Positions 66 through 20,352 of a stretch of DNA of 32,000 nucleotides are shown here, piece by piece. How positions within the stretch are numbered: the first letter of the stretch is position 1; each line of letters starts with the position of its first letter. A model generated the notes under the pieces. It saw only the letters and a program-made list of their open reading frames with translations, was not told the DNA's origin and ran no database searches. Both the position numbers and the translations under genes were made by a program. Origin of the DNA: an uncultured Candidatus Brocadia sp. (lineage in GTDB: Bacteria; Planctomycetota; Brocadiia; Brocadiales; Brocadiaceae); NCBI GenBank assembly GCA_964490485.1, contig CAZBCT010000003.1, positions 35,280-67,279 on the forward strand, written 5' to 3'.

Positions 66-151
66 TTTATAAAATTCTTACCACGAAACAGAAGGAAGTG
101 CTATTAATTCCAATAACAACCGATTTCCTTTTCGTGGAGGTATTCATAGCT

Positions 152-2077
152 CTATACTTTCATTCCAATCTCTACACCCTCAGCGATGGCCTCAAGGGCG
201 GTACGGCCTTCTGCGGCATCACCAACAGTGTAAACCGTAGGAATAAAGGGTTGGATAGAGACAGCGAGTGCGCTGTTCGGTTGATGGAGGGTGGGAATGA
301 CAATGGTATCAAACCCATCGAGTTTTTGATCTGCTTCCCGCCGGCGATTGATAATGATATAATTATGTCCAACCTCAACAACTTTTGTGTTGACGTACAA
401 TTGAGCTCCCATCTTCTTAAGACGTTCACAAACATGATACCGGGGGTGTGCAACGAGTCCCAATCCAAGCACACGCCTCATCTCTATGAGGGTAATCTTT
501 TTTCCTCTGGAAGCGAGAAAGTCGGCAAGCTCGCAACCCTCAGGACCTCCTCCAACGATGGCAATGTTGTTTCCAAGAGAATCTGAATTTACAAATGCCT
601 GCTTAACGTCGATCGTACCGTTATTTTGTGCACCGCCGATCTCAATATGCACGTTCCTGGCGCCATGTGCGAGAACAACTACGTCAGGGGAAAATTGTTT
701 GATTGCTTCCGCTGTTGCCTCTGTGTTAAGCTGAATCAAAGCGTCAGTTTTTTTAACCTGAAGGATTAAATAATCGAGAAATTTTCCTAAAGATTCCTTC
801 TTCGGCGCCAGTGATGCATAGCAGAAACTTCCTCCCAGCCGTGATCCTTTTTCCCACAGGGTAACTTTATGCCCTCGGCCTGATAATACCTGCGCGGCTG
901 ATAATCCTGCCGGTCCACCCCCGACAATGAGTATTCTTTTTGGGTGTGTGGTTTTCGTCGTGCGGTGAATATTTTCTTTACCAATAGAGGGATTGACCGT
1001 ACAGACAAGCCTTTTATTAGAGATACTTTCGATACACCGGTTACAGCTTATGCAGGTTCTTATATCATCGGGTCTGCCGTCTTTCACCTTATTAGGGAAG
1101 TGCGGGTCGGCAATAAGGGTACGCCCCAACACAATAAGGTCTGCCTTGTTTTCCTGTAATATGCTTTCAGCCATAGCGGGATTTAAAATCCTCCCAACAG
1201 CTAATACGGGTATTTTTACCACAGATTTGATCCCCGCTGCGAGATGGACAAAACAGCCTTCTTCTAGATAATAACAGGGTATATTGAAAAACGCGGATGC
1301 GTAGTTGCATGCAGAAACGTGAAGAGCGCTTGTGCCAGCCCTTTCAAGTATTTTGGCTATCTCCCTGCTTTCTTCCAATTTCAGCCCCGTATCAGTATAT
1401 TCGTCTGCGCTGATACGACAAATGACCGGATAATCCCCTGAAGCACACCTACGTATACCTTCAACAATTTCCTGCGCAAATCGTGAACGACGGGCAGTGC
1501 TTCCCCCGTAATCGTCTGTGCGCGTATTAGATTCCGGGGAAAGAAATTGATTCGCCAGATATCCGTGCGCCATGTGAATTTCAACACCATCAAATCCTGC
1601 GCTTATGGCACGAACAGCGCCTTGAATAAATTTGTTGATTATGTCCCTGATTTCTTCAGCCGTTAATTCTCTGGGCATTTCTTTGGTTAAAGGGCTCGGA
1701 ATAGCAGACGGGGCTACCGGCTTCAAACCGGTAAAGTATGGCAATGCCTCTTTCCCTGCATGACTTAATTGAATAACAATTTTTCCGCCTGCGGCATGGA
1801 TGCAATCCGTGAGTTTTTTAAAGCCTGGAATATATTTGTCATCATGGATGCATAACATGCCGTCATTGACCCTGCCTGCAGGGTCGACGGCTGTATTTTC
1901 CAGGGTAATATACCCCACTCCTCCCACAGCACGCTCTTTGTAGTAAACAATAAGCTCCTCAGTCACAAAACCCTCTGTATCGCATAAATGCGTCTCCATA
2001 GGGGACATTACCATGCGATTCTTTACGCTCAGAGAGCCTAGCTTAAATGGACTGAAGAGTTTTGGAAAAGCATTCAT
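152..2077 (-). CDS. Old-yellow-enzyme-type FMN oxidoreductase fused to an FAD/NAD(P)-binding domain (2,4-dienoyl-CoA reductase FadH-like)
   Basis: 641-aa ORF. The N-terminus [19 protein letters not shown]...IQLSHAGK is a typical OYE TIM barrel. A Cys cluster ([10 protein letters not shown]) follows, then the dinucleotide-binding motif [14 protein letters not shown] and a second motif [12 protein letters not shown]. Confidence 0.85.
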
Positions 2078-2163
2078 TATTTATAAAACCTCCACCTTGG
2101 TATTGGGTTGAATTATTTGTTGTTTGGCGCCTGAAATATGACGTTTTTCTGCATTATCTGCGA

Positions 2164-3279
2164 CTATCGTGTCTGGGCTAATGCCCTTTTTCTTCTTACG
2201 GGGTTATAGAGTGTGTTCCGTTCAACGGGTTCACGGCCAGCCTCTTTGATGAGTTTGATGATTTCACGGGCAGACAATGCCTCCGGCGTTTCGGCCCCTG
2301 CGGCGTGGGTGATTTTTTCCTCTTGTACCGTGCCGTCGATATCGTCCACGCCGAAACTGAGAGAAACTTGGGATAGCTTGATTCCCAGCATAATCCAATA
2401 TGCCTTGATGTGGTCAAAGTTGTCGAGCATCAACCGGCTTATTGAAATGACTTTTAAATCTAACATAGCGGTAGTACCCGTACTGTTTGACAGTTCAGTA
2501 TTTTTTGGGTGAAATGCAAGCGGAATAAAGGCCAGAAATCCGCCGGTCTCGTCTTGAAGCTCCCGCAACTTCACAAGATGGTTGATTCTGTCTTCGGGTG
2601 TTTCGACATGACCGTAAAGCATAGTTGCATTGCTTCGTAATCCCAGGGCATGGGCCTCACGCATTACCTGTAACCATCCCTCGCCGCTGAGTTTTTCAGG
2701 ACATAATTGCTCACGAATTTTTGGAGAAAATACCTCAGCGCCGCCGCCCGGTAATGAACCCAACCCTGCCTCGCTGAGTTCTCTTAGTGTTTGCCGCACG
2801 GAAAGCCTTGCTATTTGTGACAAGTGTTCGATTTCTACTGCAGTAAATGCCTGGATGTGTACATCAGGACAATTTTCGTGAATCTCACGGATCATTCTTA
2901 GATAAAAATCGAATGGTAGGTCTGGGTGCAATCCGCCTACGATATGGAGTTCTGTTGCGCCTTCTTCTACCGCAGCCATGGCTTTATCAAGAATTTCTTC
3001 CAAGGCCATCTCATAGGAGCCTGCCTCTTCTTTGTCTCTGCTAAAGGCGCAGAACTTGCACCGGTTCTTGCAGATATTGGAGTAGTTGATATGCCGATTA
3101 GTAATATAGTATGCCTTATTGCCATTTTTCCGTTCACGGACGATATTTGCTATATGTCCGATGTGAAGGATATCGTTGGACTTGAAGAGTCGCACGCCAT
3201 CCTCGAAGCTCAGGCGCTTACCATGCTCAACCTTTTGAAGGATATCATATATGGGCGACAATCGTAGTAATTTTTCCAT
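2164..3279 (-). CDS. mqnE: Radical SAM enzyme of the futalosine menaquinone pathway, aminofutalosine synthase MqnE-like (MqnC not excluded)
   Basis: 371-aa ORF with the radical SAM motif CKNRCKFCAF. It also has LHPDLPFDFY, LPGGGAEVF, HIKAYWIMLG and IDGTVQEEKITHAAGA, which I recall as MqnE/MqnC/CofH-family blocks. Confidence 0.7.
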   Translation of the reverse strand: MEKLLRLSPIYDILQKVEHGKRLSFEDGVRLFKSNDILHIGHIANIVRERKNGNKAYYITNRHINYSNICKNRCKFCAFSRDKEEAGSYEMALEEILDKAMAAVEEGATELHIVGGLHPDLPFDFYLRMIREIHENCPDVHIQAFTAVEIEHLSQIARLSVRQTLRELSEAGLGSLPGGGAEVFSPKIREQLCPEKLSGEGWLQVMREAHALGLRSNATMLYGHVETPEDRINHLVKLRELQDETGGFLAFIPLAFHPKNTELSNSTGTTAMLDLKVISISRLMLDNFDHIKAYWIMLGIKLSQVSLSFGVDDIDGTVQEEKITHAAGAETPEALSAREIIKLIKEAGREPVERNTLYNPVRRKRALAQTR

Positions 3280-3338
3280 TTTATGAAAATATCAGAATTT
3301 GACGTCAAAATCAAGAAATATGTCCCGCTACTGGTGAT

Positions 3339-3492
3339 GTAAGGGTTCTCGTTTTTCGACAGGATTTGCAGGATGAAAAGAGCTTCTTCCCTCTGCTCAG
3401 AATGACATGTATACACTGTCATTCTGAATGAAGCCGAGCGAAATGAAGAATCTATAAAGGTTTTACCAAAGAGGCATTTCAAAAAGCTAAAT
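3339..3492. repeat. Degenerate relative of the MITE family seen at 9585-9745 and 20841-20990
   Basis: It ends with TTTCAAAAAGCTAAATT (3477-3492), which matches the right terminal repeat of the MITE. The left end gtaagggttctcgtttttcga only weakly resembles the left TIR. The core is a different perfect hairpin, TCAGAATGACA/TGTCATTCTGA (3397-3427). Confidence 0.35.
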
Positions 3493-3538
3493 TAGTACCA
3501 TCACGGACTTGATCGGATATTTTATCATCATATCCATA

Positions 3539-3566
3539 TTGACAAATTGGTCTCCTTTATTATATT
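3539..3566 (+). promoter_or_regulatory. Sigma70-type promoter candidate upstream of the first plus-strand cassette
   Basis: TTGACA (3539-3544), a 16-nt spacer, then TATATT (3561-3566). It lies 63 nt upstream of the GTTCGCC core and about 80 nt upstream of the ATG at 3647. Confidence 0.5.
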
Positions 3567-3646
3567 GTATCACGATAAATTTTTATGATATCTGTAATAA
3601 AAGACAACATATAGGCTGTGTAATCCATGTTCGCCAGGAGAAGAAA

Positions 3647-4408
3647 ATGACCGAATCAAAAGAAATGTACGAACGATGTGAAGGATCACTAGCCTCAGTC
3701 CTCGGGCTTGCTATTCATTTCCTTGAAACGCTTCGCTTCAACCGAAAAAATCCGCAACAACTATATTCCGTTTGCCTTTACGCACGCTTACTTGAACTTG
3801 CTACTGCATGCAAAGCCCTTCTTGAAAAAAATGCAATGGTCGGCATCCCCATCCTTCTGCGTAGTATGTTTGAAGCAGACATCGATCTCACCAACTTGAT
3901 GAAGTGTTCGGATTATTACAAACGCATGTATGCTTCATTCCTCCAAGCGAAGATTCGTTTGACCAAAGAAGCTGCATCATCCAGACCAAATCCGTTTCTC
4001 GCAGAAATAAGGGCAAATCGAAATCATAAAAAGGACCTTTGCGAGACACAGGCGGAACTAGACAAACTCATTGCTGAAAAGAATGGCCCTATTAATATCC
4101 GATGTTGCGCTGAATTCGCGGGCAAACTGGATGAATACCTGTCAAATTATAATAGCCTTTGCCTCGACACCCATAACAACATCCGCTCTTTAGAGGAATG
4201 GTACATCCAGAAGCTTGCGGCTGAAGACTATCGTGTTGTCGTGTTCAAACAGTCCAAGGTGGACATTGTTCCCGCACTCATGTACATCTCGCATATCTTA
4301 CTTATTCAAACAAAATCCCTTGCTGATTTCCTTGGAACCACGGGCATTGAATTTGATAGGTACTTCACTGAATTGCAGGAGCTTGCAGATTCAGCAACGG
4401 GCGACTAA
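3647..4408 (+). CDS. Hypothetical all-alpha protein (cassette A)
   Basis: ATG 3647 is preceded by AGGAG (3636-3640). The product is 253 aa and starts MTESKEMYERCEG. The ORF-track TTG start at 3509 would read through the promoter-like region and looks too long. No motif was recognised. Confidence 0.6.
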   Translation: MTESKEMYERCEGSLASVLGLAIHFLETLRFNRKNPQQLYSVCLYARLLELATACKALLEKNAMVGIPILLRSMFEADIDLTNLMKCSDYYKRMYASFLQAKIRLTKEAASSRPNPFLAEIRANRNHKKDLCETQAELDKLIAEKNGPINIRCCAEFAGKLDEYLSNYNSLCLDTHNNIRSLEEWYIQKLAAEDYRVVVFKQSKVDIVPALMYISHILLIQTKSLADFLGTTGIEFDRYFTELQELADSATGD

Positions 4409-4420
4409 AAAGAGTGAAAC

Positions 4421-4473
4421 GGCGAACCATAAGATTGACCAGAATTTCGTCTTGTCATCCACATCTGTTATTT
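4421..4473 (+). other. attC-like element after cassette A (short, weak palindrome)
   Basis: It runs from GGCGAAC to GTTATTT over 53 nt. Partial pairings are AAC/GTT, AGAT/ATCT and TGAC/GTCA. It is shorter and less palindromic than canonical attC sites. Confidence 0.3.
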
Positions 4474-4542
4474 GGCTATAAATGCCGACAATCTTCGTGA
4501 TTATTTATGTGTATTTTTGGTATTGATGTGGGGGGAAATTTT

Positions 4543-5175
4543 ATGGATTCAATTATTACTGCTTTAGCTACCTTAGCTGCTGCATATTTTGGTGCCTTAT
4601 TTGCCTTTAAATTTCAAGAAAGAAAAGAAGAACGAAAAATTCGAACTAACAATATTGCTGCTGGGAATCGTGCTATGTTTTTACTATTCAGGCAATTCAA
4701 TGAATTATCTGGTATTCAAAAACAAATAATTGAACCTGCCAGAACACATCCGGCCAAATTTGTTGTTATGCGCCCAGCTCTTCCTTTGAATTATCAGAGT
4801 TTAAGATTTGAGGTAAGCAACTTAAGCTTCCTTCTCGAAACAAAACATCGGCAAGTTTTAATGGATTTATTAATAGAAGAAGGTAGATTTCATGCGGCAG
4901 TGCAAACTCTAAATGAGCGTTCAAAAATGCATCTCCATGATGTACAACCAGTTTTGGAAAAAGCAGGAATGGTCGAGGGCGGTGATTATTCACTGTCTCA
5001 ACTTGAAGAAGCCATGGGCAATCGTTTATTTGTACAACTTAACCGAGCTACAGATCAGATGATAGACCATATCGATGATAGTATTAAATCTCTTCTGCAA
5101 ATGAGTGATAAATTATATGAAGTATTAAAAGAATTATATCCTGGTGAAATATTTATTAAATTTAAAGCCACATAA
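4543..5175 (+). CDS. Hypothetical protein with one N-terminal transmembrane helix (cassette B)
   Basis: ATG 4543 follows GGGGGAA. The 210-aa product has the N-terminus MDSIITALATLAAAYFGALFAFKF followed by a basic stretch and a helical remainder. The gene is visibly more AT-rich than its neighbours. Confidence 0.6.
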   Translation: MDSIITALATLAAAYFGALFAFKFQERKEERKIRTNNIAAGNRAMFLLFRQFNELSGIQKQIIEPARTHPAKFVVMRPALPLNYQSLRFEVSNLSFLLETKHRQVLMDLLIEEGRFHAAVQTLNERSKMHLHDVQPVLEKAGMVEGGDYSLSQLEEAMGNRLFVQLNRATDQMIDHIDDSIKSLLQMSDKLYEVLKELYPGEIFIKFKAT

Positions 5176-5304
5176 CAATTGCGTGCACTTGAACGAGTGC
5201 CACAGGACGCTTTTTCGGCATATGGTTGGTTTAAGGAGTGTAAAACAATTTTTGGGCAAGCTAGGGTGATGCAGTGGCACTCGTCAGTGACGCTGGCGTT
5301 CGAC
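5170..5304 (+). other. attC-like imperfect palindrome after cassette B
   Basis: 135 nt. ACATAAC overlaps the TAA stop and the element ends in GTTCGAC. The left arm gcgtGcactTgaAcgagtgccac (5181-5203) pairs with gtggcactcgtcagtgacgc (5274-5293) over 20 bp. Three single-base bulges all fall on the stop-proximal arm. Confidence 0.5.
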
Positions 5305-5339
5305 GGAAAGAGAACAGATAGCATACGTATCGGTGATAG

Positions 5340-6335
5340 ATGACTGACAGTACTGGAAAAAACAATGCCATTGTCCCAGCGCAACCACAACAGCTAGCGG
5401 TGCGTCATGTATGGCTCATCGAGAGAGGCATTCATTCGCTCCCAATTCTAGGAATAACCGAGAGCCGTGTTAAGGAATTTTGTTCAATCCTTGAGGATTC
5501 TGACTTTCTTAACCGCGAAATAACACTGAAAACAATAGTAGATATTGGGACTCACATCAGGTCATGCAGACGGCACCTTGACTCGCTCATCTTTCCGTTA
5601 GTTAAAAACTTTTACTTTTGTTTCGAAGAATCAGAGCGTGAAAGTCGTGCCAGCGGTCACGAACCTCACCCTAGAGAGCGTGAATACACTAAGCTTTCTT
5701 TCGCGGCACTGGAGGCGTTAGTCGGCCCTTTAATGAGTCCCGATGAGGCGATAATGGATATTGTATACTTTGGAACGACTGCCTCGCGCATACGTGCTAT
5801 CGACTGGCTCTCAGATAATAAACAAAGACTTACTACAGCTACCCATGACTTATTCTCTGATTATTTGCGCACGATGCTCCTTTCCACTATACAGAGCACA
5901 CCGTTATTTCTTGCACTGAAATATGCGGATGCAGAGATACACGATCATATTGAGGAAGCCATATACTTTTTTATAGACAAGATTATTCTTGAGAACATAC
6001 CACCGGACGAGCTTAAGGAAAAGGTCGGATGTTACGTTTGTGGTTTATCTTACAACGAGAAAGCCTCCCAAGAGGCTGTAATCTATGCTCTTGGCAAGTT
6101 AGCAGAATTGGGTGATCCCACATATGTGGAATGTGCCTGTGAGATGTTCTTTGTGATAGCGGAAAAGTATAGAGATTTAGACAGGTACTCTGACGATGAA
6201 CTGGAAATGATTTCCTGTGCGTATAAGAAATGTATGAAAGCCCTTTTCGCGCGGTTTTCATCTAACGGACTTGAAGTATACAAATACAAGGAACTTGTTA
6301 TGGAAGAGCTCAAACGTCGAGGATTGCATGGGTGA
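5340..6335 (+). CDS. Hypothetical alpha-helical protein with HEAT-like repeat signature (cassette C-D, first gene)
   Basis: 331-aa ORF. Segments such as AVIYALGKLAELGDPTYVE resemble HEAT/PBS-lyase-type repeats. The stop (6333-6335) overlaps the next gene's ATG (6328). Confidence 0.55.
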   Translation: MTDSTGKNNAIVPAQPQQLAVRHVWLIERGIHSLPILGITESRVKEFCSILEDSDFLNREITLKTIVDIGTHIRSCRRHLDSLIFPLVKNFYFCFEESERESRASGHEPHPREREYTKLSFAALEALVGPLMSPDEAIMDIVYFGTTASRIRAIDWLSDNKQRLTTATHDLFSDYLRTMLLSTIQSTPLFLALKYADAEIHDHIEEAIYFFIDKIILENIPPDELKEKVGCYVCGLSYNEKASQEAVIYALGKLAELGDPTYVECACEMFFVIAEKYRDLDRYSDDELEMISCAYKKCMKALFARFSSNGLEVYKYKELVMEELKRRGLHG

Positions 6336-7113
6336 ATATATGAGCGGGAGCGCACAAGGACGGCAAACGCCGGAAGATATCGAACTTGAGAGAAAACAAG
6401 AGGATCTTCGTGAACTCGAAGCAGAGTTTGCTGAAAAGGAACTTAGGCTTGCTACTTTACGCGCCGAACTGCATCACTTTGATATGCGATACATCAGGCA
6501 TGTCGGAAGCTTGTATACGGTTCTTGATGACTTGGAAGCGCAAATTGCCGAAGAGGTAGCACGCAAGCACCCTCGAAATGAACGTGCAAGGAAAATGGCA
6601 GAACATGCCCGCTCCAAAGCGCGAAAATCGGCGTCTGAAGCAACGCCATCCGATGAAACGTATGTTTCAGGAGACGAATTCAAGCCATCTGAAAGGTTGA
6701 AGGCACTTTACAGATCAGCAGCAAAGGCCATCCATCCTGACCTTGCCAGCGATAATGCCGATTGTGCGCGTCGCCACAAGGCGATGGCATCAGTAAATGA
6801 AGCATACGAAAAGGGAGACGAGAAGCGCATTAAAGCCATCATTGAGGAGTGGGAGTCTAGCCCTGAATCGGTGAAAGGCGAGGGAACTGCTGCCGGGCTT
6901 GTCCGAATAATCCGGCGTATTTCTTTAATCCGCAAGAGGCTTGACAGTATTAGAAATGAGATTGACCACCTCCAGAGTAGCTCTCTGGCACTATTGAAGC
7001 GGAAGGTTGATGCGGGACTCGCTCAAGGACGGGACATATTGAAGGAAATGGCAGTCGGAATTCAGGCAGAAATCCAGGAAGCGGAAGAGCGACTTGCTCA
7101 GATATGTCAATAG
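6328..7113 (+). CDS. Coiled-coil protein with a J-domain (HPD motif)
   Basis: LKALYRSAAKAIHPDLASDNADCARRHKAMASVNEAYEKGD is a J-domain helix II-HPD-helix III signature. It is flanked by heptad-like charged coiled-coil segments. The start is ATG 6328 (overlapping the upstream gene) or ATG 6340. Confidence 0.7.
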   Translation: MGEYMSGSAQGRQTPEDIELERKQEDLRELEAEFAEKELRLATLRAELHHFDMRYIRHVGSLYTVLDDLEAQIAEEVARKHPRNERARKMAEHARSKARKSASEATPSDETYVSGDEFKPSERLKALYRSAAKAIHPDLASDNADCARRHKAMASVNEAYEKGDEKRIKAIIEEWESSPESVKGEGTAAGLVRIIRRISLIRKRLDSIRNEIDHLQSSSLALLKRKVDAGLAQGRDILKEMAVGIQAEIQEAEERLAQICQ

Positions 7114-7119
7114 AAAATC

Positions 7120-7163
7120 GTCGAACCAGGAGCGCAGACAGATGCGGACAAACTGTGTTACTG
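7120..7163 (+). other. Short attC-like element after cassette C-D
   Basis: GTCGAAC (the exact reverse complement of the GTTCGAC that starts the cassette) lies 7 nt after the stop. Nested pairings are CAG/CTG, CGCA/TGCG and GT..AAC/GTTAC. At 44 nt it is shorter than typical attC sites. Confidence 0.3.
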
Positions 7164-7414
7164 AACTATGATGCAAAAAACGATTTTTTTCTAATGCTCA
7201 TTCTTGCATATTTTCAAAGTCAAGCCCCAGCCTTTGCAACAGCAAGTGTTTTTCCATTGATTTTCTTTGTCTTCTCTGTCTTAATATTTTTACGATATCT
7301 AACTTTAAGCAAACGAATAACCAAAGTTCCTTTCCAAGGTTAAATACATTTCTTCAATATAGCAGTTCTGTGTTTAAGGGTTGACAACGCTTTTGTTGTT
7401 TACGGAGGAAAATT

Positions 7415-8509
7415 ATGAGGAGTAAGGTCTATTTTATTAAAGTAGAAAAAGGTGAGAATGTTTCTTCCATTGCAAAAAAGACGAAACAGCTTTTTAATTT
7501 TGCTGGCTTTGCAGATGCGATCCGTAAAAACGACATGGTAGCAGTAAAGACCAGCTTTGGCGAAAAAGGGAATATTGGACATCTCAAGCCACCGATTATA
7601 AAGGCCGTTGTGGACAAAGTAAGGGCGTGTCATGGCAAACCCTTTTTGATAGAGACAAACACCCTGTATGTCGGCCGACGTACCAATGCCGTTGATCATA
7701 TCTCACATGCCCACGATCACGGTTTTGGATATGAAAATATCGGTGCTCCCATTATTATTGGAGACGGGCTCTTTGGTGAGCATGGCGTGCAAGTAGAGAT
7801 CAACCAGAAATTGTGCAAATATGCATATGTAGCTGGTGTAGCGCAAGCAGCAAATACCATCGTCTCAATAGCGCATGTGACAGGGCATCTGGCAACGGGT
7901 ATGGGAGCCACGCTGAAGAATATTGGGATGGGGCTCTCATCACGCGGCGGAAAACTTGCCCAGCACTCTGGTGTAATCCCTCAAATCCTGAAGAAACGGT
8001 GCAATGCCTGTGGTGCGTGCGGCAAATGGTGCCCGGTGGGGGCAATCCAGATGGATGATCAGTATGCCGTTATTGATCCAAAGATATGCATCGGGTGCGG
8101 GGAATGTTTGGCCGTATGTCAATTCGGTGCTGTGAAAATTGCCTGGGACGAAAATACGGTTAATCTTCAAAAAAAGGTTGCAGAATACTGCCTTGCCATT
8201 TTAAAAGGAAAGAACGGCAAGGCGGTCTTTTTCAATTTTCTGACCCATATTACCAAGCACTGCGATTGTATGGGCAAACCGTTTCAGGCTGATATTGCAG
8301 ATATTGGCATCGTTGCATCCATTGATCCCGTTGCCATTGAAAAGGCAACTGCGGATATTATTCAGGACCACACCGGAAAGGACTTCTTTAAAGATGCCTG
8401 GCCACACATTGATTATACCATTCAAATTGCCTATGCACAGGAGATTGGTCTGGGCAGTATGGATTACGAATTGATACCTTGTGGACAGGATGCCGGCGTT
8501 GTAGTTTAG
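7415..8509 (+). CDS. DUF362-family protein with two 4Fe-4S ferredoxin-type clusters
   Basis: 364-aa ORF with GGAGG 7 nt upstream. It contains CNACGACGKWCP and CIGCGECLAVCQ ferredoxin motifs inside a DUF362-like frame (KTSFGEKGN..., HCDCMG). Confidence 0.85.
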   Translation: MRSKVYFIKVEKGENVSSIAKKTKQLFNFAGFADAIRKNDMVAVKTSFGEKGNIGHLKPPIIKAVVDKVRACHGKPFLIETNTLYVGRRTNAVDHISHAHDHGFGYENIGAPIIIGDGLFGEHGVQVEINQKLCKYAYVAGVAQAANTIVSIAHVTGHLATGMGATLKNIGMGLSSRGGKLAQHSGVIPQILKKRCNACGACGKWCPVGAIQMDDQYAVIDPKICIGCGECLAVCQFGAVKIAWDENTVNLQKKVAEYCLAILKGKNGKAVFFNFLTHITKHCDCMGKPFQADIADIGIVASIDPVAIEKATADIIQDHTGKDFFKDAWPHIDYTIQIAYAQEIGLGSMDYELIPCGQDAGVVV

Positions 8510-8578: not shown

Positions 8579-9256
8579 CTAAAAAGAACTCCCTTGTACT
8601 ATGGTATCCAGAAGACGCAGGAGTTCCGTTGGCCTTTTGATCAAGAGCCGCGCGCCATTTTCCAGAAGTTCTTGTCCCGAGCGGAAGCCCCAGAGGGCTC
8701 CCACGGGATACATACCCGCCGACACGGCGGTCTTCATGTCGATGGCGGTGTCGCCAAGGTAGACAAACTGTGATGAAGAGATATTGAGGAAGCGGGAGAT
8801 TTCCAATGCCCCTGATGGGTCTGGCTTGAGAGGCACGGAGTCACGCTGCCCCAGCACGAGATCAAATGTCCATTGGGGAAAATATTCACTTACACACCGC
8901 TTGGTAAAATCATCCGGCTTGTTTGATAAAACAGCCATTTTCACGTCGTGTGCCGCCAGCGCATTAAGCATTTCTGCCACCCCCTCGTAGGGTCTTGTCT
9001 TTATCTTCCATTCTCGTTCATATTCTGCACGGAATGCCTGGACACAATCATGGATAGTAACATCACTCCGTCTGTCCTCAGGCAGTGCACGCCTCATCAG
9101 CACAACCGCACCATCACCCACCATGTAACGATATGCATTCATATCATGCGTGGGAAATCCGTTCTTCTCAAGAACACGATTTGCAGCGCTCGCCAAATCT
9201 TCCAAAGTGTCAAGGAGTGTTCCATCGAGATCAAAGATTATAGCTTTAAATGGCAT
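8579..9256 (-). CDS. HAD-superfamily phosphatase (phosphoglycolate phosphatase-like)
   Basis: It has the FDLDGTLLDT motif I, LSNK motif II and YLGDTAIDM motif III. The likely start is MPFKAIIFD at 9256; the ORF track's 9277 is possible. Confidence 0.85.
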   Translation of the reverse strand: MPFKAIIFDLDGTLLDTLEDLASAANRVLEKNGFPTHDMNAYRYMVGDGAVVLMRRALPEDRRSDVTIHDCVQAFRAEYEREWKIKTRPYEGVAEMLNALAAHDVKMAVLSNKPDDFTKRCVSEYFPQWTFDLVLGQRDSVPLKPDPSGALEISRFLNISSSQFVYLGDTAIDMKTAVSAGMYPVGALWGFRSGQELLENGARLLIKRPTELLRLLDTIVQGSSF

Positions 9257-9584: not shown

Positions 9585-9745
9585 TTTTCAAAAAGCTAAA
9601 GTATTACGTTTTTTGAAAATGTAGGGGCGAAGCATTTGCCGGCTTGTGTATGAGCGCATGTATACCAACGATAGCAAATGCTTCGCCCCTACACTGTGCG
9701 GTACACATCGCCATTAATTGGTTCTTTTCAAAAAACTAAATTGTT
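9585..9745. mobile_element. MITE copy A (partly decayed left end, extra solo terminal repeat)
   Basis: The inner 19-bp perfect inverted repeat GTAGGGGCGAAGCATTTGC (9621-9639 / 9674-9692) has a 34-nt loop. The right TIR is TTTTCAAAAAACTAAATTGTT (9725-9745). The left TIR is shortened (9609-9619). An additional TIR-like TTTTCAAAAAGCTAAA sits at 9585-9600. Confidence 0.65.
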
Positions 9746-9933: not shown

Positions 9934-11166
9934 TTAATCCATTCTGCTTATCACAAGACATGAATTATTTCCATCATAATCCATGGTATTTATTATGACG
10001 TTCCGGATTTCTTTTTTAAAGGGTCTTTCAAGGATAAGATTCAGATTAATCTCCGGGTCTTTGTTGCAGTGATTCATGATGTGAGGTATTTGGCCTGTGT
10101 TTATTGACATGATTGATGAAATGATTTGTGCTGCACCGGCGGTTCCGTACGATTCGCCGATGGTCGATTTTATTGCAGATACCGGAATACGAACATTCCC
10201 TGTGTCGAATAACGATTGGATAGCCTTTGCCTCAACCGCATCCTGCATCTTGCATCCGTTTGCATTAGCGCTGATAAAATCAAGGTCTTCCCTTTTTACT
10301 CCAGAGTCTTCCAGCGCTTCATGCATGGCCTTTTCGGCACGACGCACCCGTATATCCGCCGAATGGTCTTTACCGCCCACGAAGGTATTCCCAAGTCCCT
10401 TTACCTCCGCATAGATATGGGCGCCCCTGTCCAGGGCGTGCTGAAGTTCTTCCAGAATAACCACGCAACTGCCTTCTGCCATGACAAAACCGTTTCTCTC
10501 TTTATCGAAAGGCAGGCTCGCCTCTCTTGTACCATCAAGACCGGACAACAAACCGCGCAGGTAAAATATGAGATACAGATCAATGGATATCTGCTCGACA
10601 CCGCCTGTCACGATTACCTTTGCCATATCGCGCTGGATCATTTTGAATGCATCTCCTATGGCATCGGTGCTTGATGTGAAACCAGCAGAAATGGTGCGCG
10701 CAAGCCCCTTCATCTTAAAGATGACCGATACGTAATTGATGGAAGAGTTTAAAGCCACATCGTAACTGAGCATGGGCGACAATTCGGAGGGATTATTTCG
10801 TATGATTTCATAAAAGTAATCGGTGGTCTCGGAAAAATTTCCCAGCGATGAACCGATGACAATGCCCATTTTCTCCGACAGGGAACCATCCGTCGGGAGC
10901 CTTGCATCGTCAATGGCCATCTTGGAAGCAGACCCCAAAAATCGTGTGCCTTTGTTCAGATACTTTAGACCTTTACTACCAAGGTATATCTCGGGTTTAA
11001 GGTCTCTTACTTCCCCGCCGAGCTTGCATTTATACGGAGAAAGGTCAAGAGAGGCCATCGGCGCAATGCCAGATTTCCCGGCGATAAGATTATCCCAAAA
11101 AACCTCTTTTCCGCATCCAAGAGGGGATACGACACCTAAACCGGTAATAACGACTCGTTTTTTCAT
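9934..11166 (-). CDS. Beta-ketoacyl synthase paralogue lacking the Cys-His-His catalytic triad (chain-length-factor-like partner)
   Basis: The product has a KAS fold (MKKRVVITGLGVVSPLG...). Aligned to the adjacent KAS, Cys becomes Phe (ISAGFTSS vs LNACSSG). His becomes Asn (ISANANG vs INAHGTG), and the second His becomes Glu (STIGESYG vs SMIGHLMG). The likely start is ATG 11166. Confidence 0.85.
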   Translation of the reverse strand: MKKRVVITGLGVVSPLGCGKEVFWDNLIAGKSGIAPMASLDLSPYKCKLGGEVRDLKPEIYLGSKGLKYLNKGTRFLGSASKMAIDDARLPTDGSLSEKMGIVIGSSLGNFSETTDYFYEIIRNNPSELSPMLSYDVALNSSINYVSVIFKMKGLARTISAGFTSSTDAIGDAFKMIQRDMAKVIVTGGVEQISIDLYLIFYLRGLLSGLDGTREASLPFDKERNGFVMAEGSCVVILEELQHALDRGAHIYAEVKGLGNTFVGGKDHSADIRVRRAEKAMHEALEDSGVKREDLDFISANANGCKMQDAVEAKAIQSLFDTGNVRIPVSAIKSTIGESYGTAGAAQIISSIMSINTGQIPHIMNHCNKDPEINLNLILERPFKKEIRNVIINTMDYDGNNSCLVISRMD

Positions 11167-11251
11167 TGCACACCCGACAAAACACGGACAAACAAAGTTT
11201 ATCCGTACCACCCAAAAAACCGCTTAAATAAAATGAAAATTCCTCTTTGCT

Positions 11252-11363
11252 GGTTCAATCGTCCTCGATTGAACCGAAACATTTGGTATAATTCCGTCTC
11301 ACTGCACAAGTTCACGCTTTAGAGTAACATTCAAATATATGGTTCAATCTGCAAGATTGAACC
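11252..11363. repeat. Two related hairpins in the KS-KS intergenic region
   Basis: GGTTCAATCG-tcct-CGATTGAACC (11252-11275) and GGTTCAATCT-gca-AGATTGAACC (11341-11363). Both are perfect 10-bp stems sharing GGTTCAAT. Confidence 0.6.
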
Positions 11364-11407
11364 AGCCTTGAGGTTTGCTTCGTCCATTCGGCAAGCTCAG
11401 GACATGC

Positions 11408-12619
11408 TTAACCCATCCTACTAAATATTGTAGTTGCATTGTTTCCGCCGAAGGCAAAGGAATTATTTAATACGTGATCCACTTTTACCTCGCGCATCAC
11501 ATTGGGTACGTAATCAAGGTCGCATTCCGGATCGGGGGTTTCGTAATTAATCGTCGGAGGAATTACTCCATGTCTCAATATCAGACAGCAGACGACTGAT
11601 TCCACGGCACTCGCTGCGCCCATAAGATGACCAATCATCGATTTGGTGGAACTGCAGGGAATCTTATATGCGTCTTCGCTAAATACGCGTTTTATAGCGG
11701 TTGTCTCGGTCTTGTCATTGTGCGGAGTTCCTGTGCCATGTGCATTGATGTACCCAATTTCCTGGGGAGAAAGCCTTGCCATCTTCAACGCATCGCTCAT
11801 GCACTTCACCGCCCCGTCACCTTCGGGATGGGGTGCGGTCATATGAAATCCATCGCAGCTTAACCCATAACCTGCCAGCTCAGCAATAATCGGTGCCCCG
11901 CGTTTTTTGGCAAATTCGTATCGTTCCATGATCAGTATCCCTGCCCCTTCGCCTATCATGAGTCCCTGGCGGTTTTTGTCGAAGGGTTGACAACGCTCAG
12001 GAGCTAAGGCCTTGAGATTATGAAAGTGGGTAAATTCCGTCTGAGGGATCATGTCACCGCCACCGACCATTACCACGTCAACCTTATTATCCACCAGGAG
12101 GTCATATGCCCAGGAAATGGCGTGATTGCCCGACGAGCAGGCGTTCAGCGAGATCATGGTTGGGCCTTCAAAATCAAAGTATTTAGACAGGACATTGGCG
12201 ATCGAATTGGGTGGGTAAACGGCAGCAACGATTTTATCGAAACCGTTATCTTTTCTCGAGGTGTCTAACCGCAAGAGTCTCTCAAACGGTGTCAATTCGG
12301 CTGCCAAGGTTCCTATGGCAATACCAAATCGCTCCCGGTTGAATTTTTTATCACCTAACAAACCACTTTCTTGCAACGCTTCCCTGGCTGCATAGTAGAC
12401 ATATTTATGGATTGTGTTTTCTTTGATCTGATTTTCTAGTTCAAAGTCCCATTGAAAATTTTTTACTTCGCAGGAACGATGCACCTTATATTTTGAGGTG
12501 TCGAAGGACTTCATTTCGTTGGCGCCGTTCCTGCCCTGGATGAATGATTCCCAGCTTTGTTTAACGCCAATCCCAATAGGTGTGACCAATCCCAATCCTG
12601 TAATTACGACCTTTGACAT
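11408..12619 (-). CDS. Beta-ketoacyl-ACP synthase, FabF/FabB (KAS I/II) type, catalytically intact
   Basis: The Cys-His-His triad is present as NACSSG, YINAHGTGTPHND and SSTKSMIGHLMGAASA, with a C-terminal FAFGGNNATTIF. The likely start is ATG 12619; the ORF track begins at TTG 12628. Confidence 0.9.
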   Translation of the reverse strand: MSKVVITGLGLVTPIGIGVKQSWESFIQGRNGANEMKSFDTSKYKVHRSCEVKNFQWDFELENQIKENTIHKYVYYAAREALQESGLLGDKKFNRERFGIAIGTLAAELTPFERLLRLDTSRKDNGFDKIVAAVYPPNSIANVLSKYFDFEGPTMISLNACSSGNHAISWAYDLLVDNKVDVVMVGGGDMIPQTEFTHFHNLKALAPERCQPFDKNRQGLMIGEGAGILIMERYEFAKKRGAPIIAELAGYGLSCDGFHMTAPHPEGDGAVKCMSDALKMARLSPQEIGYINAHGTGTPHNDKTETTAIKRVFSEDAYKIPCSSTKSMIGHLMGAASAVESVVCCLILRHGVIPPTINYETPDPECDLDYVPNVMREVKVDHVLNNSFAFGGNNATTIFSRMG

Positions 12620-12731
12620 ATATTTCAATCTTTAAACAAGAAAGGTCAACTATTCACATTAATTAATCCAACGAATATGTTGACCTTACAAACAATGCTT
12701 AACCCTCCAAAGAAAGGAGGAATTTCCGCTG

Positions 12732-14213
12732 TTAAGACGATGTCTCAATCGGCGTCAATTGTACCTTTTTCCCTGATTTTTTCGATTGTTGATATCGTTT
12801 TAATGCCTCGTCATAGAATCCTGATGTCTGCAATTCTTTGAGATTTTGGATCAGGTGTTGGTAAACGGACTGCCAATCCAGATTGACCCTGAATGCAAAC
12901 ATGGCGGCATTCATGTTATCTTTCAGCACCTCTTTCGCATTTTGGAATCTCTGCCGCAATACCTCGGTGGCATAAATTCTGTCATACAGATATTGAAATC
13001 CATCGATAAGTTCCTGAAGGGACATGTTTTTCAGGACATAGGTGAGATGATGAGACGTGTAATACTTCCAATCCTCCGGAAAGTTTGTCCTGAAAAGCCT
13101 TCCTTCGCCGTTTAACCGGTGATACAGCGGCGTATTAATGAACGGACACAAAATACCGCAGGTCATGATGTCGACATGGGAATCCAGGACAAAATCGGCA
13201 ACCTGCTTAAAGGTATCGGGGGTATCGGCATCATTGCCAAAGACCATGGTCCCCCACACGGCAAGTCCGTGTTTGCGGATATTGGCTATCGCCTCAAAAT
13301 AATTTTCAATGGAGATGCGCAAATTTACGTTCTTGTTCATCGTCTTCAATGCCTCTTCATTGATGGATTCAATCCCAATGAGCATCCCGACGCACCCGCT
13401 TTTTTTCATATATTCAAGGGTTTCATCATCTTTATAGATATTGAGCGAGGTAAACCCGAACCAGTTCTGGTAAATACCCCTTTCCACCATACCCTTGAAA
13501 AGGTCCCGAACACGCTCATTAGACTTTTTGCTGTGTCCGTAAAAATTTTCATCTGTCAGGATCAAACCGCGATATTGACCCTTGATGGATTCGAATTCAT
13601 CAAGGACGTCTTCAATAGGTCTTTCACGATATTTCCTGCCCTGAAACTGAGGCACAGAGCAGAACTCACAGCTAAACGGGCATCCGGCGGTAGTTATAAT
13701 GCCTGAATACCGGTATTTATATTTATCCTTCAAATATTTTCTATCAGGCCGCAACCCCTGATACAACTCCATGGGCGTCAGGACGCCGTCGTATCTTTTC
13801 TGGAGACACCCTTTTTCAAAATCACCAACGATTTTTTCCCAGGTAGTAACAGCTTCCCTCGTAACGACGCAGTCCACATATTTTGCCGCCTCTTCCGGAT
13901 AACTCGTTGCGTGAATACCGCCCATGATTACCGGTATGCCCCGCTTCCGGCAGGCAGTAGCTATCTGATAAGCCCGGTGGGCCTGATAACTTACCGACGT
14001 GATACCGACCAGGTCGGCTCCACCAAAGGTAATATTTCCTGTATTTTCGTCAAGTGCAAGTTCCTGGGTTTCATCGATGATATCGACTTGCCAGTGTTTT
14101 GGAGTCAATACCTTCAGATAGCCGAGATTTACCGGCATTTGATTTAATACGGAGACATTCTCCTCGCCAACATTTCCAATCGGATGTGGATTGATTAATA
14201 CAAGTCTTTTCAT
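12732..14213 (-). CDS. B12-binding-domain radical SAM enzyme (class B type)
   Basis: 493 aa. The N-terminal cobalamin-binding-like Rossmann segment (LVLINPHP...DLVGITSVSYQ...PVIMGGIHAT) is followed by the CPFSCEFC radical SAM motif and a long C-terminal helical extension. Confidence 0.9.
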   Translation of the reverse strand: MKRLVLINPHPIGNVGEENVSVLNQMPVNLGYLKVLTPKHWQVDIIDETQELALDENTGNITFGGADLVGITSVSYQAHRAYQIATACRKRGIPVIMGGIHATSYPEEAAKYVDCVVTREAVTTWEKIVGDFEKGCLQKRYDGVLTPMELYQGLRPDRKYLKDKYKYRYSGIITTAGCPFSCEFCSVPQFQGRKYRERPIEDVLDEFESIKGQYRGLILTDENFYGHSKKSNERVRDLFKGMVERGIYQNWFGFTSLNIYKDDETLEYMKKSGCVGMLIGIESINEEALKTMNKNVNLRISIENYFEAIANIRKHGLAVWGTMVFGNDADTPDTFKQVADFVLDSHVDIMTCGILCPFINTPLYHRLNGEGRLFRTNFPEDWKYYTSHHLTYVLKNMSLQELIDGFQYLYDRIYATEVLRQRFQNAKEVLKDNMNAAMFAFRVNLDWQSVYQHLIQNLKELQTSGFYDEALKRYQQSKKSGKKVQLTPIETSS

Positions 14214-14596
14214 GAACCTTCCTCTTTTTTGGGCACCAATAATACCTGGGCAATGGCATAGTCCTGGCAGTGGGATAAGGATACAGAAATATTATCAATA
14301 TGTTTCTTATCTGCCATTTCTTTTACACTTCCATACAGATTCAAATAGGGCCTGCCCATTTCGTCATTTAAGAGTTCAATATCCGTCCATTTCATTTTAC
14401 CGACCCAGCCAGTCCCCAGCGCCTTGAACAGGGCCTCTTTTGAGGCGAAACGAGCTGCAAAATGCTGATATTTGTTCTTCCTTTGTTTGCAGTATTCCAC
14501 CTCTTTTTCTGTATAAATCCTTCGCAAGAAATCCTCATTGGCGGAGAACAATTTTTCAATCCGTTTTATTTCTATAATATCAATACCAACATACAT
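14210..14596 (-). CDS. acpS: Holo-ACP synthase (4'-phosphopantetheinyl transferase)
   Basis: 128 aa with MYVGIDIIEIKRIEK...FAARFASKEALFKALGTG, typical of AcpS. Its stop overlaps the radical SAM start by 4 nt (ATGA). Confidence 0.9.
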   Translation of the reverse strand: MYVGIDIIEIKRIEKLFSANEDFLRRIYTEKEVEYCKQRKNKYQHFAARFASKEALFKALGTGWVGKMKWTDIELLNDEMGRPYLNLYGSVKEMADKKHIDNISVSLSHCQDYAIAQVLLVPKKEEGS

Positions 14597-15217: not shown

Positions 15218-15996
15218 AAAGCCAAGCATCTTGTCGTAACTCTTCATCCGGCAGCAATCAGCCAAGCTTGCAAACTTCGCGATGAGGCAATCACTGCCGC
15301 AGGGCTTCGCAAGGCGCTATCGGTATTATTGGTGGCCGAGCCAGGTCTTGATGCGGAAAAGACAGCAGAGGTCCTCGGAACAAGCCGCCGAACAATTTTT
15401 CGCAAACGAGAGGAATTTCGCCATCAAGATGATGCATCGAGAAATTCTTGGGGTGGGGGTGGGCGTCGCCGTTTCTCTCTATCTATAGGGGAGGAACGGG
15501 AATTCCTTTCAGCATGGGAAGCAGCGGCAACAGCAGGTGGTGTTCTTTCTGTGCCTGCTGGGCGCCATCGCCCCACAGGCCAGTGGTTAGTCTTGCCCTG
15601 GTACGGGAGTTTAGGTATGAGTATGCAGCGGTAAGTCCGTGGGACGGAGAGATTGATCGTATGACAAGAGAAAAGATGAATACTGAAAGTATGAGTTGTT
15701 TTCTAAAACAGGTAAGTAAGGCACATCCGAATGAGTTTGATGTTATGATTGTTGATGGTGCGTCATCCCATAAAGGCAAAGAACGTAAAATTCCAAAAAA
15801 CATGGCGCTGGTGTTTTTGCCGTCATATCCTCCTGAATTGAGCCAGGCAGAGCAGATATGGAATATACTTCGGCGCGACTATTTTGCTAACAGGGTATTT
15901 GATTCTCTGGATGCAGCGACAGGGCAGGCAAAGCGGGGATTTACTATTATGGTGAAAAACAAAGAGGCAGTAAGAAATTTGACAAATTGGCATTGA
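15218..15996 (+). pseudogene. IS630-family transposase remnant (5'-truncated, internally deleted or frameshifted)
   Basis: One frame gives an HTH part (LVAEPGLDAEKTAEVLGTSRRTIFRKREEF...GGGGRRR) with no start codon. A second frame gives the DDE C-terminus (MIVDGASSHKGKE...FLPSYPPELSQAEQIWNILRRDYFANRVFDSLD). The middle of the catalytic domain is missing. Confidence 0.7.
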
Positions 15997-17797: not shown

Positions 17798-17926
17798 ATA
17801 TAACACGGGTGTCACCTGCGCGAAAGGGAAAGAGTACTGAACGTTCCGAAAGCACAAAACTTGAAAAATGCACTGAACTCTGAAATTACGCTACTGCTTT
17901 TGCATCAGGTGGACGCATTGTTAGAT
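17798..17926 (-). other. attC-like imperfect palindrome after the PIN cassette
   Basis: Read on the minus strand it runs from ATCTAAC to GTTATAT over 129 nt. The outer arms ATCTAACA/ATATAACA pair, a mismatched stretch of about 7 nt follows, and then the inner box CACCTG/CAGGTG pairs. Confidence 0.5.
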
Positions 17927-18105
17927 GCTGCTGTTTGTACGGTTTTTGAAGGTAAAGATTTGATTGGATGTCCGTACTTCTGGCCGTACTCCTTTTCTTT
18001 CTTTTTTAAATCTGCACAAATCGCGCGCAAGTCAAAATTGAATCGCTGGGCATGTTTCTTGCGGGCTTCACGTACTTCTTCTACTATTGGGTCTTTCATC
18101 GTCAT
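17905..18105 (-). CDS. Putative antitoxin partner of the PIN protein
   Basis: 66 aa, MTMKDPIVEEVREARKKHAQRFNFDLRAICADLKKKEKE. Its ATG overlaps the PIN stop (ATGA). It resembles, from memory, small proteins encoded downstream of this PIN subfamily. Confidence 0.55.
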   Translation of the reverse strand: MTMKDPIVEEVREARKKHAQRFNFDLRAICADLKKKEKEYGQKYGHPIKSLPSKTVQTAASNNAST

Positions 18106-18575
18106 TCTCCTAATAACTCTTCTGGTGAACATATTGTTGGACACTGATACCCTTCGGCTTCAACCAGCGATATTATCTTTGCTTTCATTTGAGCGTTGTT
18201 TATATGTGTAAAGTTCCACGTCAAAAGATAGTCCATCCCGTTTATGGTTGCCACGGCAATATGAAGTGCATCTTCGGGGTACTGCTTCGGTATTGGCCCA
18301 TCTTTTATTAATAGCGAAGCTAAATGTTCTGCTTCATTGCTTATGGACAGAACGGGTATCTTCGAAATCGCTGATAATCTCTTCTGGGCCGCTTCGGCAT
18401 CCCCATACTCGGCTTCTTGAACAACCAATGCGGAGATATGCGGCTCAAATATCTTGAGAATCTCAGGCCATTTCTCTCGAGTAATCTCCTGACGTCCGGC
18501 TATAACCAAATCTCTGCTTGGTTTCGACGTGTAGTAGCTTACTACGCTCGTTTCGATGTAAACCGTTTCTTTCAT
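18102..18575 (-). CDS. PIN-domain (VapC-like) toxin
   Basis: 157 aa. MKETVYIETSVVSYYTSKPSRD...QEAE...EDALHIAVATINGMDYLLTWNFTHI shows a PIN-like acidic residue pattern. Confidence 0.75.
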   Translation of the reverse strand: MKETVYIETSVVSYYTSKPSRDLVIAGRQEITREKWPEILKIFEPHISALVVQEAEYGDAEAAQKRLSAISKIPVLSISNEAEHLASLLIKDGPIPKQYPEDALHIAVATINGMDYLLTWNFTHINNAQMKAKIISLVEAEGYQCPTICSPEELLGE

Positions 18576-18607
18576 ACATCCTTTGGTTTAAGAATCTGTT
18601 TCTACAC

Positions 18608-18677
18608 AGTTAACGAGAAAGCTCACTGGCGGCAATGGAGCACAGCGGAATTGCCGTCTGGTACAGCGTTGTTAGGT
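18608..18677 (-). other. attC-like element after the ParE cassette
   Basis: Read on the minus strand, ACCTAAC (overlapping the TAA stop) to GTTAACT, 70 nt, with a central 7-bp stem CGGCAAT/ATTGCCG. Confidence 0.45.
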
Positions 18678-18968
18678 TTTGATTCTGTTAATCCAATACA
18701 TTGGTTCACGGTGTAAGTGTGCAATAGCAATAACATAAATATGGCCTTTTTCAATAGAGTATAATACTTTGTAAGGAAACTTATGAAGAATATACCTTCT
18801 AATATTTTCACTTTCCTGAGAACCAATTCCTGGCATTTTTTTGATAATATTAATGGCTCTTTTGACTTCTTGTTCAAATCTTTTTCCCAAACCTGTTACT
18901 TCAATTTCATAATATTCTTTTCCATCATCAAATTCTTTTTTAGCCAATTCGTCGAATATCACTCTCAT
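18672..18968 (-). CDS. RelE/ParE-family toxin
   Basis: 98 aa. The pattern ...RRYILHKFPYKVLYSIEKGHIYVIAIAHLHREP is typical of the plasmid-stabilisation ParE/RelE fold. Confidence 0.8.
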   Translation of the reverse strand: MRVIFDELAKKEFDDGKEYYEIEVTGLGKRFEQEVKRAINIIKKMPGIGSQESENIRRYILHKFPYKVLYSIEKGHIYVIAIAHLHREPMYWINRIKT

Positions 18969-18973
18969 AAAGC

Positions 18974-19177: not shown

Positions 19178-19206
19178 ACTTGTATTCCTTTCTAGTAATT
19201 TTTTAC

Positions 19207-19768: not shown

Positions 19769-19799
19769 ATCCCCTCCAATATGTTATATTTAATTTACC

Positions 19800-19859: not shown

Positions 19860-19876
19860 GCTTCTATGTTAGTTCA

Positions 19877-20302: not shown

Positions 20303-20352
20303 AATGCACCTGAATCTATGCGTCTAACAATGTTATTGGCAGGTTTTCCATA

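Follow-up and report, generated by a model that had tools for sequence, protein, structure and literature searches.

A three-cassette array in a Candidatus Brocadia-like anammox genome, very probably the remains of a chromosomal integron whose integrase gene was lost

Are four consecutive genes for uncharacterised proteins on the plus strand of an anammox genome an ordinary operon, or are they the cassettes of an integron? The question is raised by positions 3499-7179 of a 32,000-nucleotide stretch of DNA (the window) from an uncultured Candidatus Brocadia sp. (contig CAZBCT010000003.1 of assembly GCA_964490485.1, positions 35,280 to 67,279 of the forward strand). An integron cassette consists of an open reading frame (ORF) followed by an attC site, the bottom strand of which folds into a structure with an R box, an unpaired spacer, an L box carrying extrahelical bases and a variable loop. 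The integron integrase cuts the R' core of such a site between G and TT (written here as G↓TT), and either excises the cassette as a circle or inserts it at an attI or attC site. A first-pass annotation of the window, made from its letters, had read positions 3539-7163 as a cassette array; the analysis reported here supports the substance of that reading, and adds to it the absence of an integrase gene and corrections to the recombination sites. In our view the segment 3499-7179 is very probably what is left, in a Candidatus Brocadia-like anammox genome, of a chromosomal integron from which the integrase gene has disappeared. The pieces that remain would be a few 5' codons of the integrase gene, an intergenic region with promoter-like and attI-like sites, and three cassettes, named A, B and C-D.

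The array remnant (3499-7179) contains, in this order, the putative integrase relic, the promoter-like site, the attI-like site and cassettes A, B and C-D, all three in one orientation on the plus strand. Cassette A (3630-4467) comprises gene A (3647-4408), which encodes a DUF5677 protein of 253 aa (Pfam E 2e-16), and most of its attC site. Cassette B (4468-5298, 831 nt) comprises gene B (4543-5175, 210 aa, with the ribosome-binding site GGGGGGA 8 nt upstream) and its attC site. Cassette C-D (5299-7173) carries two genes that overlap by ATGGGTGA: gene C (5340-6335), encoding 331 aa with a predicted all-alpha repeat fold, and gene D (6328-7113), encoding 261 aa with a coiled coil and a J-like domain containing HPD. 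The paired 7-mers that the first-pass annotation had described around these units were all found at the positions it gave, by reading of the sequence: GTTCGCC (3629-3635) and GGCGAAC (4421-4427) around gene A are exact complements, GTTATTT (4467-4473) and ACATAAC (5170-5176) around gene B match at 6/7, and GTTCGAC (5298-5304) and GTCGAAC (7120-7126) around C-D are again complementary at 7/7. The start of each cassette can in this way pair with its own R'' (A 7/7, B 6/7, C-D 7/7), and the cores in the window do not all fit RYYYAAC/GTTRRRY strictly. Both A and C-D, as well as three cassettes of a second array on the minus strand (described below), have a start-proximal GTTNNNN with an exact complement past the stop codon; none of the 16 housekeeping genes in the window (0/16) reaches even 6/7. 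Among random pairs of 60-nt windows, the chance of such pairing is 0.0035 per gene for 7/7 and 0.04 for at least 6/7, and core pairing is much stronger evidence than the hairpin fold.

Comparative presence and absence settled what folding energies could not. The locus L011, of which the C protein is 89% identical, has the same flanks and genes A, C and D but no B. Window 2190-4469 aligns to L011 7628-9961 and window 5297-7277 to L011 9958-11937, and L011 is without exactly window 4468-5298, the 831 nt made up of gene B and the 135-nt element that follows it. The junction in L011 reads ..CCACGTCCG↓TTCTACGG.. (also written ..CCACGTCCG↓TTCTACGGAAAG), that is, G↓TTCTAC; in the window, the left junction of B is ..CACATCTG↓TTATTTGG and the right junction is ..GCTGGCG↓TTCGACGGAAAG. 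GTT bounds the unit on both sides, and the alleles with and without B meet at G↓TT. One precise gain or loss of B has thus taken place between related strains. Since B is a discrete unit with GTT on both sides and a start that pairs with its R'', positions 4468-5298 have the marks of an integron cassette that was inserted, or excised, at the G↓TT point, and for this cassette the comparative evidence supports a probable crossover between G and TT of R'. We regard it as highly improbable that the 831-nt difference is instead a microhomology-mediated deletion or the trace of another mobile element, such as a small transposon with a 3-bp target duplication: only GTT is shared by the two ends, a sequence that many processes could use, but the unit lacks terminal inverted repeats, has a hairpin at just one of its ends and opens with six bases complementary to its own R'' core; identically delimited B units are also found in unrelated arrays, where canonical attC sites border them.

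Each of the three units was also found without the others in other loci, where it is delimited in the same manner. B has 17 homologues, and in L096, L097 and L102 the B unit starts at G↓TTATGT, which is complementary at 7/7 to its R'' ACATAAC; it shares the L arms of the window site, its loop varies and its R' reads GTTGGGC, and in L102 another attC site lies directly upstream of it. In a metagenome scan, homologues of A with the same ends were recovered in L103 and L105, starting at G↓TTCGCC and ending with GGCGAAC and a canonical attC site (38.2 and 37.5 bits with the covariance model R1, see below), with a further canonical attC site just upstream in L103; L109 and L110 have an integrase remnant, and the cassette that comes first beside it is the A homologue. 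The overlapping C-D pair, retained in L011, is always kept in the homologues L092, L093, L094 and L095, in different surroundings, and in L092 it starts at G↓TTCGAC and ends with GTCGAAC and a canonical 60-nt attC site (GTCGAAC-CAAGC-GCT(C)CAGCGG..CCGCTGAGC-TTTATC-GTTGGGT; 33.9 bits with R1). The L011 junction, together with the G↓TT starts and R'' ends of the homologues, bears out the three units that the first-pass annotation had proposed as cassettes and the boundaries that it gave them.

These data bear directly on the operon alternative, in which the four genes would form an ordinary chromosomal operon and the 7-mers and the hairpin would be due to chance or would be transcription signals (a terminator or an RNA stability element). 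The four genes do lie on one strand behind one promoter, C and D do overlap, and fold z-scores are weak and simple attC grammar scans match shuffled sequence equally often (both detailed below). Yet A, B and C-D occur independently elsewhere and B is absent from L011, so the four genes are not a conserved operon or syntenic block; in addition, no terminator with a U-tract is predicted on the plus strand, the element after B matches an attC model at 61 bits, and the core pairing has the low chance per gene given above. The operon explanation therefore has, in our estimate, almost no probability left, and the comparative data already refute it. The compared sequences show exact G↓TT boundaries, the architecture of attC sites, cassettes that occur independently of each other and one precise gain or loss of B, and the lost-integrase integron is the reading that we carry forward.

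How well do the sites behind the three units conform to attC sites? In 16 attC sites taken from other arrays, we found a common layout of R'' (7 nt), a 5-nt spacer, 3 bp, an extrahelical base and at least 6 bp; past L'', the variable loop leads into the return arm, which a spacer of 5-6 nt separates from R'. A first covariance model, R1, was built from 14 of these 16 sites with their loops trimmed to a short loop; 94% of the L-box cells pair in its training set and 6/9 L-box pairs show double changes, figures biased by the fact that the sites were picked by eye. R1 recovers a minus-strand site on which it was not trained at 29.5 bits. It misses long sites, among them that of B and two minus-strand control sites, and its misses were for this reason not counted as evidence against B. 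A second model, R2, was built from two attC sites of about 132 nt that belong to unrelated cassettes (L096 5283-5414 and L102 1-131), and also matches two sites of the minus-strand array (E 0.011 and 0.15). Other routes were abandoned: two hand-written attC grammar scanners matched shuffled sequence as often as the window itself and failed to pick up true sites, and RNAalifold on the raw MAFFT alignment of attC sites returned no structure, the 3' arms being out of register; a registered alignment was obtained after the variable loops had been trimmed.

The attC site of B (5170-5304, plus strand, 135 nt) consists of R'' ACATAAC, arms enclosing a variable loop of about 70 nt, and R' GTTCGAC. Folding confirmed the 20 bp claimed for it by the first-pass annotation, with an L stem that joins 5181-5203 to 5274-5293 and three single-base bulges, all on the 5' (stop-proximal) R''-L'' arm. 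The home-made model R2 matches this element over its full length at 61 bits (E 1.3e-14). The site belongs to a class of attC sites of about 132 nt, which also comprises L096 993-1124 and 5283-5414 and L102 1-131 and 829-960; its members follow unrelated cassettes from different metagenomes and share three conserved extrahelical bases and a partly conserved loop. Across these five sites 96.8% of the cells pair in a 19-pair L helix, seven pairs show compensatory changes, and the three bulges fall at the same places.

The attC site of A (4421-4473, plus strand, 53 nt) has the canonical layout, with R'' GGCGAAC, a 5-nt spacer, L'' GAT(T)GACCAGA, a loop, L' TCTTGTCATC, a 7-nt spacer and R' GTTATTT; its L stem is of 10 bp with one extrahelical T, and is a perfect 10 bp in L011. 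The site after D (7120-7179, plus strand) appears to be a decayed fossil, in which R'' GTCGAAC is kept and the L boxes are eroded. The first-pass annotation had correctly located its R'' at 7120-7126, and had misplaced its R' at GTTACTG (7157-7163); alignment to the 60-nt attC site of L092 places the homologous R' at 7173-7179, where the window has GCAAAAA, with GTT lost, and L011 has GTATAAA. It had described the sites behind A and D as shorter and less palindromic than canonical sites; that of A is weak (13 bits) and that of D decayed.

If the cassettes once stood beside an integrase gene, traces of it should be sought at the left end, and integrase sequences were searched for by tblastn with an IntI1 query that serves as a lead and not as a reference. 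In L109 and L110 these searches showed an integrase N-terminal remnant divergent from the first cassette, and in L092 and L093 an integrase C-terminal fragment, encoded on the strand that carries the cassettes. The 17 nt at window 3499-3515 (minus strand; codons for ..DQVRD..) match exactly (E 2e-5) L110 3791-3807, inside the IntI N-terminal remnant of that locus (MKLLDQVRDVIRKKHYSIRTEQAYVNW..), and so represent a candidate relic of the integrase 5' end. Between this relic and the first cassette lies a sigma-70-like promoter, TTGACA-16-TATATT (3539-3566, plus strand), which agrees with the consensus at 11/12 positions, as the first-pass annotation had it, and is conserved in L011. Behind it, an attI-like site (3591-3635, plus strand) ends in the crossover G3629↓TTCGCC and, when read directly, holds two copies of a TGTAAT-like repeat; it is identical at 35/46 positions to the stretch that precedes the first cassette beside the integrase remnant in L109/L110, and the match in L110 ends at the G↓TTCGAC of its first cassette, the shared crossover pattern being G↓TTCG(A/C)C. 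The relic match and the attI-like match are colinear with L110 and in the same orientation. The left end is thus probably an integrase relic followed by a promoter-bearing intergenic region and an attI-like site, as would be expected of an integron from which the integrase has been deleted. The Pc-like position that had been attributed to the promoter at 3539-3566 is plausible in view of its place between the putative relic and the attI-like site.

Several results weigh against this account as a whole. The attC site of A scores only 13.0 bits with R1 (E 0.49) and, with exact ends, ranks fourth in the window; the site after D is detected by neither R1 nor R2 in the window and has no significant fold; and Rfam scans at gathering and permissive thresholds returned nothing relevant. 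All attC scores come from home-made models trained on sites picked by eye, and not from the model of IntegronFinder. Folding energies compared with shuffled sequences are not significant for any of the three elements (z-scores of only -1.4 to -1.8), and the hairpin of B, with an inverted-repeat score of 41, ranks fifth in the window; because this score lies within the range of the best scores of shuffled 32-kb sequences (38-49) and the z-scores are weak, the hairpin is not significant window-wide, being unusual for its exact place and not genome-wide. At the left end, no integrase gene was found in the 32-kb window, nor any integrase fragment longer than the relic, which measures only 17 nt, and the 35/46 identity of the attI-like site is to a single other integron. 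Finally, the Candidatus Brocadia sp. WS118 locus (L012) has a similar promoter, TTGACA-17-TATTAT, at an equal distance from the mqnE-like gene that flanks the array, with no cassettes after it, so that 3539-3566 may be a host promoter and not a Pc.

The left-end points also speak for a different origin, namely that the cassettes were inserted at a secondary GTT site behind a host promoter and never had an integrase or attI site of their own, the relic and the attI-like match being coincidental. Insertion at secondary sites is one of the listed origins of integrase-less clusters (PMC4889954). We nevertheless judge it unlikely, since the exact 17-nt match falls in the N-terminal codons of an integrase, and the relic is colinear, in the same orientation, with an attI-like match that ends precisely at the G↓TTCG(A/C)C crossover. 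With a lost integrase as the preferred explanation, recombination of the cassettes would have been carried out by the lost enzyme or by an integrase encoded elsewhere, the promoter at 3539-3566 would drive the array, and the attC sites of A and C-D may be eroding because the local integrase is gone.

The second cassette array of the window lies on the minus strand (17798-20345) and has canonical attC sites at 19859-19800, 19266-19207, 18677-18608 and 17926-17798. In three of its cassettes the cores pair exactly (7/7), and no integrase is adjacent to it. It carries a PIN protein, a ParE with an Unstab_antitox antitoxin, and a DUF2283 protein, a cargo of the type typical of chromosomal integrons. 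Its presence supports the integron reading of 3499-7179.

How does the array compare with known integrons? In class 1 attC sites, R'' is followed by a 5-nt spacer and by an L'' in which the third position precedes an extrahelical base; a loop, L', a 5-7-nt spacer and R', with its G↓TT crossover, complete the site. The array in the window shares this layout with the cassettes of mobile class 1 integrons, such as that with the aadA7 attC, to which the site at L099 2599-2656 looks similar; it differs from these integrons in lacking resistance genes, an integrase and any Tn402 or plasmid context. The array is closest to the cluster of attC sites lacking integron-integrase (CALIN) as defined by IntegronFinder (PMC4889954), for which two or more attC sites must lie on one strand within 4 kb and an integrase gene must be lacking in the vicinity. 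The attC sites of A and B, as recognised by the home-made models and not at the thresholds of IntegronFinder, have starts separated by 749 nt; the array is small, and its three cassettes are uncharacterised and bear no relation to those for resistance. It differs from a CALIN in that 2/3 of its attC sites are weak or decayed, and in that an attI-like site and a short piece of the integrase gene seem to be preserved, so that the loss of the integrase can be argued directly. In the terms of IntegronFinder it is a CALIN, with signs of descent from a complete integron; a complete integron has an adjacent gene for an integrase (a tyrosine recombinase with the IntI-specific insertion), an attI site beside that gene which ends in the GTT crossover, and a Pc promoter directed into the cassettes, and no integrase gene was found in the window.

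With sedentary chromosomal integrons such as the Vibrio cholerae superintegron, the array has in common its chromosomal location, its cargo of hypothetical proteins, the toxin-antitoxin cassettes of the neighbouring array and the restriction-modification and Abi cassettes of related arrays (bioRxiv 10.1101/2024.07.02.601686). Sedentary integrons are, however, present in all genomes of a species or have more than 19 attC sites, and these sites are homogeneous (PMC4889954); the array studied here has three cassettes, no integrase and heterogeneous attC sites (53, 135 and about 60 nt, differing in sequence), and the corresponding neighbourhood in L012 is different. A third comparison is with the integrase group of Treponema, Kuenenia stuttgartiensis, Blastopirellula and Chlorobium (PMC3607928). 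The host and Kuenenia belong to one group of anammox bacteria, and the integrase C-terminal fragment of L092 and L093 is, as in that group, on the strand of the cassettes; by contrast, the relic in the window, like that in L110, points away from the cassettes.

What the cassettes do can be approached from their sequences and their company. Gene A is frameshifted in two independent arrays, L011 (9138-9891) and L110 (3980-4797), which suggests relaxed selection on the DUF5677 cargo; DUF5677 is enriched near defence-linked recombinases, and was not among the five of nine tested genes reported to give protection (bioRxiv 10.1101/2025.10.07.681051). The gene B protein begins with a hydrophobic N-terminal stretch that was judged by eye to be a putative membrane anchor, and belongs to no family, its sole match being a PHROG of unknown function; its homologues adjoin methylase/HATPase/Vsr genes, NgoFVII and HinfI restriction-modification genes, and Abi_C, AbiEii and RES genes. 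The structural model of C (predicted local distance difference test, pLDDT, 78) is an all-alpha solenoid with weak ARM/HEAT-like matches (best E 0.008), and that of D (pLDDT 87) shows a long N-terminal helix, the J-like domain and C-terminal helices; fold searches of the PDB gave no match at E <= 0.001 for either, D matching nothing useful. For a Kuenenia homologue of C (P0010), a look-up returned no contig. J-domain proteins are marked by a helix II - HPD - helix III motif; against their Pfam family, DnaJ (PF00226), the sequence of D scores 18.0 bits, below the 27.8 cut-off, and among solved PDB chains it meets nothing beyond weak J-domain similarity (best E 0.09). The HPD of D does not vary across 50 homologues, some of which have a precomputed PF00226 match or the NCBI name DnaJ, and the family numbers more than 822 members, coiled-coil J-domain proteins of about 260 aa.

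Members of the D family have a different, tightly linked partner in each locus: the ARM/HEAT-like C in the window, an LRR protein among PIN and HicAB genes in L111 (5001-6595), a WD40 protein in L115 (446-2851), a 195-aa protein inside an AbiE/DUF4145/restriction-modification island in L113 (4001-5367) and L114, and an uncharacterised 537-aa protein. The family is often found among toxin-antitoxin, Abi and restriction-modification genes. PADLOC (no match), NCBIfam and PHROGs gave no functional call for the cargo, and a search of viral contigs found B absent and D nearly absent from them. Because these cassette families keep company with restriction-modification, Abi and toxin-antitoxin genes in other arrays, a role of the cargo in phage defence or addiction is the likeliest guess, and cassettes of chromosomal integrons often encode defence systems (bioRxiv 10.1101/2024.07.02.601686). 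A more specific proposal, which we hold to be a long shot, is that C-D is an undescribed mobile two-gene module of a J protein and an interchangeable repeat-scaffold partner: the partner would recognise a target, the J protein would couple this recognition to the host Hsp70, and the pair would act in phage defence or addiction while travelling as an integron cassette.

The setting of the array is that of an anammox chromosome. The closest species representative is Candidatus Brocadia sp. WS118 (L012), and its match to the window (93% identity over 92-3329) identifies the DNA as chromosomal and from a Candidatus Brocadia-like anammox bacterium. On the left, the array is flanked by a gene of the FMN/FAD oxidoreductase family (152-2077), whose L011 orthologue has Oxidored_FMN and Pyr_redox domains, and by a minus-strand radical-SAM gene with Radical_SAM and CofH_C domains, read as mqnE (2164-3279); on the right, a DUF362/ferredoxin gene follows (7415-8509). 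The neighbourhood beside the mqnE-like gene differs from that of the window in the species representatives L012-L016 and L024, the closest available, and among these no empty site for the whole array was found. In L012, the mqnE-like gene is followed by a dodecin-like gene (read from its translation), a 228-aa gene and an ORF-free stretch that is taken to be a ribosomal RNA operon. Four assemblies of the same strain (the Logan contigs L001-L004) all break at one point, near window 3286 and close to the end of homology to Brocadia WS118 at 3329; this shared break suggests that co-existing strains differ in content beside the mqnE-like gene.

Other repeats and genes were recorded around the two arrays. 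Between the mqnE-like gene and the candidate integrase relic, a hairpin with a perfect 11-bp stem, TCAGAATGAC(A)..(T)GTCATTCTGA, occupies window 3397-3427, and L011 has an identical stem with another loop at about 8877-8905, in surroundings that do not align. The strongest hairpins of the window are the copies of a palindromic repeat containing GTAGGGGCGAAGCATTTGC, at 9620-9693 and at about 20870-20940, the latter inside a large inverted repeat (20841-20990); they resemble a dispersed element of the repetitive extragenic palindrome (REP) or miniature inverted-repeat transposable element (MITE) kind. Four minus-strand ORFs (9934-14596) were read, from translations only, as two ketosynthase-like proteins, one B12-type radical-SAM protein and one acyl carrier protein (ACP) synthase. 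Gene sets of ketosynthase, radical-SAM and ACP-synthase genes go with the synthesis of unusual lipids in anammox bacteria. Between these putative lipid-synthesis genes and the minus-strand cassette array stands a DDE_3 transposase fragment (15448-15996; Pfam E 6e-13) that is not part of any intact reading frame.

Integrons in Planctomycetes and integrase-less attC clusters have been described (PMC4889954), and the intI gene of the anammox bacterium Kuenenia stuttgartiensis has been cited (PMC3607928); these are known already, and what is new is the present anammox array, a well-known kind of element in a little-studied host. The array offers a clean example of a decaying integron, in which the integrase would be a relic and 2/3 of the attC sites are eroding. 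Anammox bacteria drive nitrogen removal in wastewater plants and in the ocean, and have neither a pure culture nor genetic tools. The precise gain or loss of one cassette between related strains shows that these bacteria take part in the exchange of integron cassettes. Cassettes A, B and C-D recur in other metagenomic arrays, and the locus provides a short list of candidate defence cassettes: DUF5677, the B family and the C-D pair.

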